A DNA stretch of 64,000 bases from Patellaria atrata CBS 101060. Its lineage: Eukaryota. Position numbers and translations under genes: made by a program. The stretch covers positions 186,001 to 250,000 of the forward strand of contig MU006101.1 of assembly GCA_010093705.1 (NCBI GenBank), in the 5' to 3' direction. Positions 24,852 through 38,577 of the stretch are shown in pieces. Every line of letters begins with the position of its first letter. Position 1 is the first letter of the stretch. The notes beneath the pieces were generated by a model. The model had not been told where the DNA came from. It saw only the letters and a list, made by a program, of their open reading frames with translations, and did not search any database.

Positions 24852-27800
24852 ATGGAGAGTACTTCCGCAGAGCTAGCCTCAGCGCTGCTTCAATGGGTCA
24901 GTCTTTGTTTATTTCCCCACTCATACCCTCATGTCGGAATCAAGCTTACTCGTCTAACAGATCAATTCCTTTGAGATAGTGAACGTGCACGAACTGCGAC
25001 AGCTCGCAGACGGTCGGATATTATGGAGCATCTTGCGGGATGCAGAGGGAGAATATTTTAACTCCAGACTTCCGGAGTCTATAGACGATGCAAAGGATAA
25101 CTGGGTTCTACGGAAACAGAACCTGAAATTTGTTCTCCGCGAGATCTCAACATTTATCAAAGAAGAGTTACTAGAATATCGATATGTGAGCGAAGTGCTT
25201 ACTCCAGATCTAGAGGAGATCGCAAGAGAGAATTCGAAACCGGAAACGATGAAGGTAATGTGTGTACCCGATCACTTTTCTGCTCCTACAATTGACGGGA
25301 TTACAATCAAGCTCGTAAAACTCGTCTTCATCGTCGCCCTTAACTCTTCCTCCAAAGCTCGGATCGTCGGAGTCCTTCAAAAACTCAAACCCGAAGTACA
25401 GAAGCCCATAATGTTGCTCATTCAGGAATTGAAAGCCATGGATGAGGAGCTAGGAAAAGAGGCAGAACAAGCAAAAACTGGATCTACATCCCAAAATGCT
25501 CCTGGAGCCGATTCTCTTCGGGTAGCTTCTCCTGTCGAGAGGGATCCTATCTTAGAGCAAGAAGAAATGTTAATCAAAGCCGAAAAAGAGAACCAAGCAT
25601 TTCGTGCAAAGGTCACCGATTTGGAGGACACTGTGACTGAGTACAAGGAAAAGCTTTCTACTCTCGAAGTGCAGCTGATTGAATCGAATCTACACGTTGA
25701 TAGGTCTCGGGCAAAAGCATATGATGATGAACAGTTCCGGAAGTTGAAAGAGGACCATTCTCACCAAGCAGATCTCATTGCGGAACTAGAAAATGAGCTC
25801 GCTACGGCGCAACATAAACTCGAGGTATTGGAAAGAAAAATGCCCAAGATCAAGGCCGATTCCCAAGAAAACCAAGATCTCCGCGATGCCCTCCAGATAG
25901 CGAGGCAAGAGAGAGATGACCTCGCACAGGTTAATAAGAAGAATGAAAATCTGAAGAAGAAGATTGAGTCGTTGCAGAATGATATCAGACGACATCATAA
26001 CCTCGAACGCGAACTTGCGGAAGCGCATGAACAAATCAAAACCCTTGACAATCTCCAAGCTGAATGCGCCGCGTTGCGAAAAGCTAACGAGGAGAGTGGA
26101 AAGGCTTTGATGAACAACGAGTTGGCTGTAGATGATTACAAGATGAAGTTACGACAAATGGAATTTGAGCTTCGCCAACACTCTCAAACCGCCGAGCATG
26201 CTGTTGAATTCCAACAACGAGCGGAAGAGCAAAATAGAGAACTTATGGAAAGGATTCGAGAATTGGAGGTCGATACTCATCAACAGTCCGACTCTGTACT
26301 TCTTGGTACTCTGGATGATGAGCTTAGTGTTGTGACAGATCATGAAAAGTTAGCCGATAGCTTAGAAGCTCGTCTCAATTGGCAGAGAATACTGACAAAG
26401 TACCTTCTTAGTGTTAAAACCTCCCCGGCCGCATCTGACGCAAACCTCATCACGCTTAAGCAGAGAATGGAAATTTTGCAAGCCAGATACGAGAGGCTGG
26501 AGGAGCAGCATTTCAACACCCTTCAAGAGAACATGGCTCTGCAGCATGGTATCAGAGATGGTCAAGGACCCTTTGAGAATACCGGGTATGATTCCAGTTG
26601 CCAAAGGTTGACACCTGAAGCCTCTACGAAGACTGATCAAAGCTATAGCTCGTCAAATCCTTTTATTCAACTTCATGAACGGCTAACAAAGGCTGAAGAA
26701 GAAAGGGAAGCATTGAGGAGCGAAGTCTTTGCTACGACATCGCAGAATGCAGAGCTTAAGACTGAGATTGCCACTCTTCGAGAGAATATCGATGTCAGCG
26801 CTCAAGATCAAGAGGTCGAGAAGACAAAGAGCAAAACTGAGTATGAAACCCTTGCTGATTACTATGCTAAACTTCAAAAGCATTGCGAAGTGCAGAAGAT
26901 CGACAACGAGAACCTGCAAAGTTCCCTTCGCCATGCTATCCTAAGGGATAGCACCAATCAAGAAGGCGACCAAATCAGTGCCGAGTTCACATTGGTCTTA
27001 GAGCAGCTTAAGATAGTCAGGGAAACTCCCGAAGCCGAAAGCGAAAAGGTCATGACATCTACGGCTGCCGACCTAAGCACCAGACTCGAAACTGGGAGGA
27101 ACAAGGTCGCAGAATGTACTCAAGTAAGTACTTCTCCTATTGACCCCAATCACGACCCTACACCGGATGAGAGCAGGAAATATTACGAGGACAAAATCCT
27201 CAGACTCGTGGCCACGGCACCCAAACCACCCATCAAGGAACAGATGCAGGAGTCGTGGTTTCAGCGCAAGTGGAAGGAGTACCAGACCGGACCCATATCC
27301 ACCAGTCCGTCCGAGAAACTTTTACCTCGCGTCGCTCCCCCTTGCCGTCCCTTCCCCAATTTCAATGGGGAGAGCAACAAGGACGCTGCCCCCGCCAGTC
27401 CGATGGGGAGCATTAGATCACTCCCCGCGCCCCCCTGCTACACCTTCCCCGAATACTTGATGGGCAGTACGGACGCCAGCTCCGGGCTCGGAGTTTCCAC
27501 CCCCCATCCCGCCCAACCCCCGAAGGATCCCACACCTCCCTTCCACCCCAAACCCCGCTTTTCCATCTTCACCGGGAGATGAGCTAACTGTTCCAGCGCC
27601 TCGAACGGCAAACTGCCCTTATCGATACCCTCACGCGCGAGATCGAGGACGCCAGAAATGTTGCGGCGCGCCAGGTGAAACAGTCCTCGGCGCTAGATTA
27701 TGCGGATCTGCGGCGCGAGAATAGGCTCATGACGTCGGCGTGGTACGATACGGTTGGCAGGCTGCAGAGTAATACCGTTGTTTTGCAGCGCCGGACAGAA

Positions 27801-28053
27801 CCGCCGCGGAGTTGGGTTAGGAAACAGATGGCCACTGTAGGGGCTGTAGGGGTGAGTGGTTTGTCTTTTTTTGGTGCTTGATGGTGTCTCTTTCGTACGG
27901 ATAGTGAAGGGTTTGTAGCATTTGAGCGTTTTTCTGGGGAGGAGTTTCTGTTTAATGAATGAGTCACGTTTGTACACTTTTCTCAACTTCATGCTTCGTC
28001 TGTTTTGCGTGAAATTGTTCTAGGCTAATTTGGCTTTATAGACACGACGATGA
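24852..28053 (+). CDS. hookA: Hook-family dynein/early-endosome adaptor (HookA/Hok1-like); predicted introns 24897-24960, 25255-25311, 26349-26411, 26586-26648, 27124-27596, 27852-28041
   Basis: N-terminal Hook domain (ALLQWINSF..LADGRILWSIL..NWVLRKQNLK), long coiled coil, and the fungal Hook C-terminal motif RENRLMTSAWYD..RLQSNTVVLQRR..PRSW. If the last intron is not spliced, the stop is at 27881. Confidence 0.85.
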
Positions 28054-28289
28054 ATGTGGAGTGGTAGCATGAGGTTCGCTAGGTTCCTGGGTATAATAAC
28101 TTTTCCTTGTCGTGGGCGTGCGTGTTTTGCATATCTTCGTTGGCATATACCCCCTGCATCGAGCGAGAGGCGTTCATTTTGTTCTTTTGATAGAAAAACC
28201 CCCTACTATTCCGTAAGAGGGGGCATTCTGGTATGTAAAAATCAAACAAGTAAATCCCAATCTCCAATCCATCCCCATGAGACGTAAAC

Positions 28290-30322
28290 CTAAATCTCCT
28301 CCAACTCCTCGTCCTCCAGCCCCGCGGGGGCCCAATCCCCCTTCTCGCAGCGTTCCGGCCGGACAAAGACGCCACAGTTCCTGCCGCACGCGAAATAGCG
28401 CGTCCCCTGTACGGAGCCATCGTTCTTGCCGACGGGCTCATCGAGCGTGATGCCGATCCAGGGAGCTCCCGTCGGGCCTGGGAGTTCGGGAATGGGGCCG
28501 ATGTGGGAAATCGTGCCGATGCGGCCGTCGGTCGTGGAGGGGAGGAGGCGGACGCGGGAGGAGGGTGTGAGGTCTAGAGTTGAGTTAATGGGGTTCAGCG
28601 CGGGTGTGGATGTTGGGGTAGAGTTCTGTGAAATTTGATGCTCGGTGTGGAAGTCGAATTTGACTTTTGGGAGATTTAGGTGAGGGTACGAGAAGAGGAG
28701 TAAAGGAGCCGGGGGTGTTGATTTACAGAAGGAGCGAAGGGGTTGGGGTGAGAAGAAGGTTTGAAACGCGGGAAGAGCTCGTTGAAGTCTCCTGAGAGGC
28801 GTTGAGGAATACGAAACATTGGAGAATCGATTGAGGAAAATCACGCATTGAAAGCTTCAAATGCTGGGAAGAGTCGTGCGGGATTTATGGAGATAAGATG
28901 GTGGACTGAGGTTGAGTTTCGGCTCGCTAGGAACCGATCCCGAACCCGACAAGGGTTCTCCTGATTCATATCCTTTTCTCATACATTTTTGAACAGCAAC
29001 TAGGAACATCGATGTAGGAACAGGCTTACGAATGTAAAATAAACGGTTGGAATGGGATGCTGATGCGAGGAAGATGATACAGGGCCGATGCCAAGAATCG
29101 CAAGATTGGATGATAGAATCGAACGACAGTGTTTGAGTTTGTTGTGATAGGGGCTCATGAACTACTACACACGCACCTCGTTCTTTAATCTCTCTTTCGA
29201 GTGCTCTGACTTTCTGCTGCTCCAGGCTCGGGGCGTCCGGATCGAAGCGACCTAACTTCCGGTTCTTCTTCCACGCAAGAACGCTATCGGTGCGCGATTC
29301 GTACTCTTGTTCCGGCATTGTGTATTTTTGAACGGATGATACATCGGTAAAATCGGTCCGGGCGCCTGGTGGCCGACTATCGACAACCTGTGGAAAGCGA
29401 TTGTTAGACATTCAAAAGGTCTTACCACGTGCTCTTTGCATATCGATAGCGAAGGATAAGATGCTCGGCGCTTTTCTTTTAGAAAAAACGAATTTAGAAT
29501 TACAGAAGTGATGGACAAAAGACTGGACGGACGTTTCTTCCTTTCCATAGACCCCCTGTGGGATGGATAGATCCAAGAGTAAAGGTCAACAATCGGGTGC
29601 AGACTGAGACATGGAGAAGGGACGGCGACCCCGTCGAGACGACAATATCAGATCGTCCGGGGTCGATTGGTTTCATGGAGATTTGCAGCAGCCCAAGAGG
29701 TTCTTTTGGGCGATCCGAAAATGATAGGCAAGCATCACCGAATTAGGAGCTGCACGTGCCGGTGTTGGTTGCAGCCTCGCGTGATGACGAGCATTAGAGA
29801 AACAGCCCCCGAAGCCAAGGGAGCGCCTCGCGGGTTTGGAACATCAGGATTTGAAACACCAGGTAATGCGAGGAACGAAAAGATGATGCACAAAGAACTG
29901 AAATGGAAACTGCTTTTTCTTCCCGCCGGGAGTCGGGAGTGATGGAAAACAAGGTATACGCGGAGTCGCAAAGTTGGAAGAGAAAAGGATGTGGCGAACG
30001 TGTTTATGCGCACGCGCCACGATATGTGCCCAAAGCAATGAGACTGCGAATAGGAACGTCGTCAACTTACTTGAACCTCAGCATAGGCTTGCAGAGGGAA
30101 CGAGGCAAGTTGGGTATTTTCTTCATCTCCAGCTTCAAGGACGGTAGATAGATGGGATCCATATCTCAGCGTGAGCTTCTGAGCTGAGGCCGGAATACCC
30201 GTGATGGGTTCCAGTCTCGCCTTAAACTGCGCGATGGTCCAGGAAGGAGATACACGTCTCTCCGATGAGGCATTGGTGGAGTTGATGAGGAGAGGGATGT
30301 CCGCGGCTGTTTGAACGGACAT
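28290..30322 (-). CDS. ALF1: Tubulin-folding cofactor B (Ubl + CAP-Gly); exons 30322-30071, 29387-29177, 28573-28290
   Basis: SERRVSPSWTIAQFKARLEPITGIP (Ubl), KYTMPEQEYESRTDSVLAWKK, WIGITLDEPVGKNDGSV (CAP-Gly GKNDG), acidic end EELEEI. Confidence 0.93.
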
Positions 30323-38477: not shown

Positions 38478-38577
38478 NNNNNNNNNNNNNNNNNNNNNNN
38501 NNNNNNNNNNNNNNNNNNNNNNNNNNNNNNNNNNNNNNNNNNNNNNNNNNNNNNNNNNNNNNNNNNNNNNNNNNNNN
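38478..38577. other. Assembly gap (100 N) flanked by poly-C and poly-T
   Basis: Run of N characters. Confidence 0.99.

Follow-up and report, generated by a model that had tools for sequence, protein, structure and literature searches.

Filamentous fungi rely on a single Hook adaptor to connect dynein (and kinesin-3) with early endosomes, which raises the question of how one such adaptor might be regulated or take on other cargoes. For HookA of Aspergillus nidulans, the N-terminal part is described as necessary for dynein–dynactin binding, while the C-terminal 64 residues are described as sufficient for binding to early endosomes, with small C-terminal deletions abolishing that binding (PMC3998793). 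The words 'isoform', 'splic' and 'intron' are absent from the HookA paper. Among the papers listed in literature searches, none dealt with Hook isoforms in fungi. In plants and animals, coding-like introns located inside protein-coding exons are known as exitrons, and their retention adds protein sequence that is typically disordered; among the 8 listed of 24 papers containing words for both exitrons and fungi, none is on fungal exitrons by title. Isoforms produced by alternative splicing or retention have been described in filamentous fungi for MoYpd1 of Magnaporthe oryzae (PMC10912366) and MoxY of Aspergillus flavus (PMC6315744). The Hook gene of Patellaria atrata analyzed here, which lies in a 64-kb stretch of genomic DNA (hereafter, the window), resembles these two cases in that one locus would give rise to several protein isoforms. 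It differs from them in that MoYpd1 and MoxY are backed by transcripts and neither concerns a motor adaptor, whereas the alternative Hook tail of P. atrata is predicted from DNA. A search for sequencing runs listed two, X1 and X2, and no RNA run; both are Logan contigs that span the stretch unbroken, without joints, and they are probably DNA and probably the source of the window itself.

Judged by its predicted protein, the P. atrata gene is a Hook-family dynein cargo adaptor, in which the HOOK_N domain, the coiled coil and the conserved tail are all present (Table 1). The N-terminal domain matches Pfam family HOOK_N (PF19047) with E=3.2e-9 and a score of 37.2 bits, above the cut-off of 23.5. 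The 721-residue body is 98% aligned to the Hook ortholog P0002 at 29% identity (E=5.5e-45), and the seven-sequence alignment of Hook orthologs (A2) contains 82 invariant columns, although the body of the P. atrata protein shares only about 29–31% identity with any Hook that was found. With the last exon as query, 25 proteins matched at E<=0.001, mostly Hook proteins of Dothideomycetes, at 46–54% identity over 85–99% of the query (63–68% in three matches that cover only 55–60%). The motif block of this exon is almost invariant in alignment A1, so that the conserved fungal C-terminal tail, a feature of the family, is recognizable in the sequence; searching the PDB with the exon's sequence brought up no relevant match. 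P. atrata Hook shares the HOOK_N domain and the conserved tail with HookA and with Hok1 of Ustilago maydis, as well as a long coiled coil in which the NENLKKKI stretch is conserved. A possible additional donor, GTGAGT, is located at 27852 inside the last exon.

Table 1. Layout of the P. atrata Hook gene, with positions counted from the first nucleotide of the window
Feature	Position	Strand	Details
Exon 1	24852..24896	+	ATG 24852, 15 codons; read from sequence; end matches ortholog N-termini (alignments A1/A2)
Intron 1	24897..24960	+	64 nt; GTCAGT..CTAACAG; in-frame stop inside
Body (HOOK_N domain and coiled coil)	24961..27123	+	three short introns inside
Short introns	25255-25311 (57 nt), 26349-26411 (63 nt), 26586-26648 (63 nt)	+	gaps relative to 6 orthologs; GT..AG ends
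473-nt intron	27124..27596	+	phase 0; donor GTAAGT 27124-27129, branch GCTAAC 27583-27588, acceptor CAG 27594-27596
Intron ORF, candidate alternative tail (P0001)	27124..27582	+	152 codons and TGA 27580-27582
Last exon, conserved C-terminal tail	27597..27881	+	TGA 27879-27881; 25 protein matches; alignment A1

In the Hook gene, the 473-nt segment that separates the body from the last exon is a real spliceosomal intron. The upstream exon and the last exon join without a gap when aligned with eight short ortholog models, and therefore the segment must be spliced out for the conserved tail to be made. In the alignment, this junction and the insertion point of the long ortholog models fall in one column. 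The splice signals and the length given in an earlier note on this DNA were found in the sequence as described; donor, branch site and acceptor are all strong consensus, which favors efficient removal of the intron. The statement that it is about 8 times longer than its neighbors holds relative to the other Hook introns (64, 57, 63 and 63 nt, making it 7–8 times as long). Long introns are nevertheless not rare at this locus, since two introns, of 683 and 603 nt, are inferred for the neighboring gene on the minus strand, which is tubulin-cofactor-B-like. As both length and composition set the 473-nt intron apart from the other Hook introns, it could owe its size to some other content, such as a non-coding RNA, a mobile 'introner-like' element or an antisense gene. 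This appears very improbable: Rfam yielded nothing at E<=1 across 26900-28100, the intron sequence has no further copy within the window, the RNA fold is no more stable than those of shuffled sequences (z=-1.0; matched by 16 of 100 shuffles), and the antisense frames hold 2–8 stops, with ORFs of at most 84 codons.

The reading that we favor, and consider plausible with a probability of roughly 0.55, is that the same intron is also used as coding sequence, giving a Hook isoform with a swapped tail in P. atrata. Splicing would join the coiled-coil body to the conserved tail and yield canonical Hook of about 769 residues, and a transcript keeping the intron would encode a Hook of about 827 residues. 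The retained form would preserve the HOOK_N domain together with the entire coiled coil, with the last 94 residues replaced by a tail of 152 residues. It would lack the conserved tail and, by analogy with Aspergillus HookA, would be unable to bind the FTS/FHIP–endosome module. The tail swap that the earlier note expects of retention, with the motor-binding part kept, follows from the reading frame, while its further suggestions of an adaptor for another cargo or of a dominant-negative form are speculation. Like an exitron, the P. atrata intron is coding-like in composition and flanked by coding sequence; unlike an exitron, it has a length that three does not divide and an in-frame TGA near its 3′ end, so that retention would swap the C-terminus rather than add an internal insert. 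Retention might, on the other hand, merely lower the amount of canonical Hook, being unproductive or regulatory, with the tail itself having no selected function. Intron retention is described as the usual type of alternative splicing in fungi and as often coupled to decay (PMC9118705, PMC7145568), and a 473-nt intron among introns of 57–64 nt may be removed less efficiently. However, pure regulation needs no open frame reaching from donor to branch site, and the peptide itself is constrained in Pleosporales-type loci (see below); we consider this explanation improbable.

The frame that would encode the swapped tail belongs to a stop-to-stop ORF of 874 codons (24958..27582), which runs from the upstream exon through the intron. 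The stop-free stretch reported earlier was confirmed: starting from 27124, the upstream frame has 152 sense codons before the TGA, so that the ORF begins at the donor and ends 1 nt short of the branch site, and the quoted pieces of its peptide were all found. At least 152 open codons were kept in 229 of 20,000 mononucleotide shuffles and in 83 of 5,000 dinucleotide shuffles (1.1–1.7%). Base composition in the intron ORF varies among the three codon positions (chi-square 15.5, p=0.017), GC at the first, second and third positions being 0.53, 0.55 and 0.68, the last value similar to that of the last exon (0.66). Control segments gave p=0.40 and 0.71 (two intergenic) and p=0.96 and 0.93 (two long introns of the neighbor), while in Hook exon slices of equal size periodicity is far stronger than in the intron ORF (p about 1e-5). 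In codon log-likelihood, frame 1 scores highest of the six frames (-20.8 bits vs -43 to -104), although the score is still negative and its lead is partly due to the absence of stops.

These same properties could belong to an ordinary long, C-rich and stop-poor intron, the open frame and weak periodicity being due to chance and the intron being either always spliced or retained as noise. The three forward frames hold 1, 2 and 4 stops, meaning that the intron is stop-poor overall and that the two other frames have just a few stops as well. The shuffle p of 0.011–0.017 is not extreme, given that the intron was picked for being open. Open runs do arise by chance at this locus, as the 603-nt intron of the neighboring gene is also open in frame, over 105 codons (p=0.019), and lacks periodicity. 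Furthermore, the encoded peptide is without a homolog, the splice signals are strong and long introns are found next door. On the other hand, openness, periodicity, GC3 and the best-frame score all agree on one frame, unlike in the two long control introns, and GC content is 0.58 in the 473-nt intron vs 0.47–0.49 in the long introns of the neighbor. Moreover, an intron at the same junction and in the same phase is coding-constrained in Pleosporales-type fungi. We regard chance as a rather unlikely explanation and hold, with moderate confidence, that the frame of the intron is more than chance within the window.

Comparison with orthologs revealed an insertion exactly at the intron junction in 12 of the 20 aligned proteins; 11 of these 12 insertions start with Val-Ser, the translation of a GTNAGY donor. 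The insertion peptide of the orthologs was found in 33 database proteins, and its named carriers represent several Pleosporales lineages. At the level of genomic DNA, all 16 Pleosporales-type loci have an intron at the same junction, in phase 0 and 395 to about 790 nt long, and all 16 introns have the donor GTAAG[CT] and are open for 107–253 codons. Both the position and the phase are common to P. atrata and Pleosporales (A1 column 744|923, phase 0). For 11 distinct Pleosporales-type loci, differences at the three codon positions number 1807/1463/3149, an excess at the third position, and the median dN/dS for the intron ORF is 0.22 (55 pairs, 11 of them saturated). Nucleotide identity over 36 pairs is 0.66 in the intron ORF, compared with 0.71 in the flanking exon (180-nt slices), 0.51 in intron 1 and 0.48 in shuffled intron 1. 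Conservation of the intron ORF drops sharply after about column 360 of 461, where the stop positions start varying. At the same time, transcript-like contigs of two Pleosporales-type organisms, 99–100% identical to the genomic loci, are devoid of the entire intron; a search for retention in such Pleosporales contigs (L006, L009, L016 and L017) found all of them spliced and none keeping the intron. The codon-level pattern indicates that the intron-encoded peptide of Pleosporales is under purifying selection even though the intron is spliced from assembled transcripts, and that an intron doubling as code for a predicted alternative Hook tail exists in Pleosporales-type relatives. This comparison shows that a fungal intron removed from the major mRNA can still evolve like an exon.

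The long ortholog models (823–920 residues) have 56–145 inserted residues followed by the tail, which would fit a different arrangement, where some of the segment codes constitutively and removal of a shorter internal intron fuses an inserted domain in frame with the tail. For P. atrata, however, 473 nt is not a multiple of three, a TGA lies 14 nt before the acceptor, and inside the intron GT occurs in a compatible phase only as GTGGCC, GTCGCT and GTTTCC, all three unlike a fungal donor. The transcript-like contigs of the two Pleosporales-type organisms lack the entire intron, and the length included in the long models varies even within one species, as expected of prediction artefacts. An inserted domain thus hardly seems credible. 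Ortholog gene models are indeed inconsistent, with 765–771 vs 823–920 residues overall and 767 vs 823 or 845 within one species. The comparative result has practical value here, as it explains why GenBank Hook models in Pleosporales disagree: gene predictors treat the coding-like intron differently. We also considered P0044, in which exon 1 is joined to exon 2 and the intron-encoded tail is present, as a retention transcript, but rejected it, since intron 1 is simply missing from some species, as seen in the genomic loci L002 and L003. In eight loci of other fungi, no conserved frame was found at the site: five have an intron of ~51–124 nt there (L024, L025, L033, L034 and L037), L027 has a 12-nt gap, and L028 and L030 have no intron at the site.

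The P. atrata intron shares with its Pleosporales counterpart, which is removed to give the canonical tail, the junction, phase 0, the GTAAG[CT] donor and a similar length, and in both the ORF starts at the donor and extends towards the branch site or the 3′ end. P. atrata is not a close relative of Pleosporales, the tail exon being 46–54% identical and the body about 29%. The peptides differ as well: that of Pleosporales has recognizable motifs, none of which is detectably shared by the P. atrata peptide (P0001). The alignment of orthologous introns suggested in the earlier note, with frame conservation and dN/dS<1 as the signs to look for, was carried out in another lineage, the Pleosporales-type loci, which keep the frame and have a median dN/dS well below one. 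A profile HMM built from 11 inserts gives no score to P0001, and hhalign returned a probability of 0.03% (E=0.95 over 5 columns). A phmmer search of P0001 against 1.84 billion representative proteins gave 0 matches, where 50%-identity clusters may be represented by spliced forms. In Pfam, no family scored above the cut-off, the single sub-threshold match being Glycoamylase (E=0.16). The best score in the ESM Atlas was 0.87, under the 0.9 line, and the language-model 'recognition' value is within the range of shuffled sequences. A tblastn search against 47 loci produced two matches, L047 (E=0.005) and L044 (E=0.009), both to the coiled-coil body of distant Hook-like genes, which we took as chance. 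An AlphaFold2 single-sequence model has helices at residues 14–31 and 45–55 (pLDDT about 72–78) and low confidence elsewhere; with a mean pLDDT of 60 and pTM of 0.20, it is uninformative beyond these two helices. P0001 would thus have two short predicted helices followed by a proline-rich, probably disordered stretch.

From the shared architecture we infer that P. atrata may retain and translate its intron and that the resulting tail may be selected in this species. If so, a selected isoform with an unchanged motor-activating part and an exchanged cargo-binding tail would be a simple answer to the one-adaptor question. Extending the idea to the whole group is more tentative, and we put it at somewhat less than even odds. 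Hook genes of Dothideomycetes would carry an old dual-use intron in front of the tail, its splicing giving the endosome adaptor and its retention a selected isoform whose motor-binding body is unchanged and whose alternative tail evolves fast. P. atrata and Pleosporales would have inherited the position, phase, length and donor-to-branch ORF of this intron, whereas the disordered tail would have diverged beyond recognition. The three short introns within the Hook body (57, 63 and 63 nt) all have lengths that are multiples of three and are stop-free, which would fit a gene that is translatable whichever intron is kept.

The 473-nt segment near the 3′ end of the Hook-family gene (24852-27881, plus strand) is an intron that is necessarily spliced out to make the canonical Hook protein. 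The gene model was based on the sequence and on alignments to orthologs. In the body translated from 24961-27123, Pfam finds HOOK_N (E=3.2e-9; score 37.2 bits, cut-off 23.5), and 98% of the length of this body aligns with known Hook proteins, at an identity of only 29%. The spliced product of about 769 residues resembles the short ortholog models (765-771 residues). Fungal Hook proteins are best conserved in the stretch that the last exon encodes (25 protein matches at E<=0.001, Dothideomycetes best). The frame of this exon differs from that of the intron ORF, and in A1, a 22-row alignment of Hook proteins spanning the last junction, its start and the upstream exon end abut gap-free against eight short ortholog models. 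All internal GT sites in a compatible phase make poor donors; partial inclusion of the segment in mRNA is therefore unlikely.

Coordinates of Hook gene features and of the long introns inferred in the adjacent gene
Feature	Window position	Strand	Length
Hook exon 1	24852-24896	+	45 nt
Hook intron 1	24897-24960	+	64 nt
Hook intron 2	25255-25311	+	57 nt
Hook intron 3	26349-26411	+	63 nt
Hook intron 4	26586-26648	+	63 nt
Intron of the finding	27124-27596	+	473 nt
Hook last exon	27597-27881	+	285 nt
Neighbour inferred long intron	29388-30070	-	683 nt
Neighbour inferred long intron	28574-29176	-	603 nt

Introns 2-4 have GT..AG ends and correspond to gaps against six orthologs. Each is a multiple of three without in-frame stops (joint chance about 0.002 in shuffles), so that 24958-27582 forms a single 874-codon open frame.

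The splice signals that the earlier note had named are all in place (GTAAGT at 27124, GCTAAC at 27583-27588, CAG at 27594-27596), and we confirmed that the upstream frame reads 152 sense codons before TGA at 27580-27582. Its remark that the intron is about eight times longer than its neighbours holds within the gene (7-8 times the other four introns), but long introns also occur in the adjacent minus-strand gene (28290-30322; ubiquitin-like and CAP-Gly domains by Pfam), which yields a sensible tubulin-cofactor-B-like protein of 248 residues only with its two long introns removed. The shorter of these likewise has a length divisible by three and contains one in-frame stop (28857-28859); it is open for 105 codons in frame from the donor (p=0.019) but shows no codon periodicity.

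That the Hook frame is a chance ORF within an ordinary intron is possible, although we consider it doubtful. Shuffled sequences stayed open for 152 codons in 229 of 20000 mononucleotide and 83 of 5000 dinucleotide trials. Base composition of the ORF varies by codon position (chi-square 15.5, p=0.017; GC1/2/3 = 0.53/0.55/0.68), the same test giving p=0.40 and 0.71 for intergenic controls, p=0.96 and 0.93 for the neighbour's two long introns, about 1e-5 for Hook exon slices of equal size and 0.008 for the 85-codon last Hook exon. Codon log-likelihood is highest for the upstream frame among the six, though still negative, and the other two plus-strand frames hold just 2 and 4 stops, which counts against a coding reading, as does the 105-codon open run in the neighbour's 603-nt intron. 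Within the window alone, the evidence for a non-chance open frame is moderate, short of compelling.

Orthologs extend the picture. In 12 of 20 A1 orthologs, 56-145 residues are inserted exactly at this junction; 11 insertions start Val-Ser, which is a GTNAGY donor read through, and their carriers span several Pleosporales lineages. The twelfth carrier is a model (P0028) from Heterodermia speciosa, a lichen fungus of another class; its 84-residue insertion starts Val-Phe and leads in frame into the tail. This may represent either a true insertion or a third lineage whose intron at this site is coding-like. A profile built from 10 insertions found 33 proteins; many are simple ORF calls extending from the Hook body into the insertion, where they end. 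Proteins tied to the Pleosporales-type intron peptide are P0002, P0006-P0010, P0015-P0018, P0023-P0025 and P0029-P0056. GenBank Hook models conflict within species (Ascochyta rabiei, 767 vs 823 residues; Ascochyta lentis, 767 vs 845).

Scanning metagenome contigs yielded 47 Hook loci, 16 of which share the long-intron architecture (Pleosporales-type: L001-L005, L007, L008, L011, L013-L015, L018-L020, L022, L023; 11-12 distinct sequences). Their junction intron has a GTAAG[CT] donor; its length, in loci with a placeable acceptor, is about 395-446 nt, apart from about 790 nt in L015. Past the donor, the upstream frame can be read for 107-253 codons without a stop, and all 16 of 16 reach at least 107. 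In the Alternaria-like L019 (also in P0046 and P0052) the 253-codon frame has the conserved tail motif at its end, with a further intron along the way. At the positions of window introns 2-4, Pleosporales-type loci lack introns. Four other loci (L006, L009, L016, L017) are gap-free at the junction and devoid of all introns. L006 agrees blockwise with genomic L007 and L008 at 99.8-100% identity, and L016 and L017 agree with L018 at 99.3-100%; lacking every intron, these contigs are spliced transcripts of the same organisms, and the junction region is therefore a true intron in Pleosporales-type fungi too. Among eight loci of more distant fungi, five have a junction intron of about 51-124 nt (L024, L025, L033, L034, L037), L027 has a 12-nt gap and L028 and L030 have none; a conserved frame is absent from all eight.

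The Pleosporales-type intron shows exon-like evolution. In 55 pairwise comparisons among 11 distinct loci, ORF differences by codon position number 1807/1463/3149, and the median dN/dS is 0.22 (11 pairs being saturated at synonymous sites); close gap-free pairs repeat the pattern (e.g. 17/19/42). Across 36 pairs drawn from 9 loci, nucleotide identity averages 0.71 in the final 180 nt of the upstream exon, 0.66 in the intron ORF and 0.51 in the interior of intron 1, where it equals the shuffled expectation of 0.48. Conservation per 30-column bin is 0.45-0.80 up to about column 360 of 461 and 0.1-0.3 beyond, with stop codons at varying positions from column 331 on. The most economical interpretation is that some 110 residues form a conserved peptide, which would be read on from the upstream exon in intron-retaining transcripts. 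No such transcript was seen among the Pleosporales-type transcript contigs; P0044, considered as one, is explicable by a species without intron 1.

The window intron matches the Pleosporales one in position, phase, donor type, length class and an ORF reaching from donor to branch site, but the peptides differ, with no detectable match: the window peptide does not score against the insert profile HMM, and hhalign gives E=0.95. This missing similarity is weak evidence either way, because the Pleosporales tail itself is 24-30% identical where the whole protein is 61-68%, and the window Hook body shares no more than about 29-31% identity with any other; protein and locus searches found no closer Hook. 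Taken together, we put the probability of a swapped-tail isoform in Patellaria atrata, made from an intron-retaining transcript, at roughly 0.55. A chance ORF in an ordinary intron is the less likely alternative, and each of the other readings seems very improbable.

With the intron removed, Hook ends in its conserved tail. In Aspergillus HookA (PMC3998793), the C-terminal 64 residues are enough for early-endosome binding, which is lost when 37 or 13 residues close to the C terminus are deleted, and dynein-dynactin binding needs the N-terminal part. With the intron kept, 152 residues would be added and translation would end 14 nt short of the acceptor. In a single-sequence model, this candidate tail has two helices (residues 14-31 and 45-55), the rest being low-confidence and proline-rich (29 of 152 residues are Pro). 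By analogy, the retained form should remain able to dimerise and to meet the motor, but the known endosome-binding module would be missing from it; it may serve another cargo, compete with the canonical form or have no effect. Among the papers listed by full-text searches, none dealt with isoforms of Hook or with a coding intron in its fungal genes, and the HookA paper does not mention isoforms, splicing or introns. Intron retention yielding protein isoforms is already known in fungi.

The end of the Hook gene (27852-27881) is provisional: the frame runs to TGA at 27879-27881, but GTGAGT at 27852 is a possible further donor, and the short Arg-Arg tail that ends orthologs was not found downstream. 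An assembly gap of 100 N lies at 38478-38577. Between 27200 and 28600, the intron, last Hook exon and 3′ end of the convergent neighbour gene reach a GC content of 0.58-0.68, up from about 0.45 in the Hook body.
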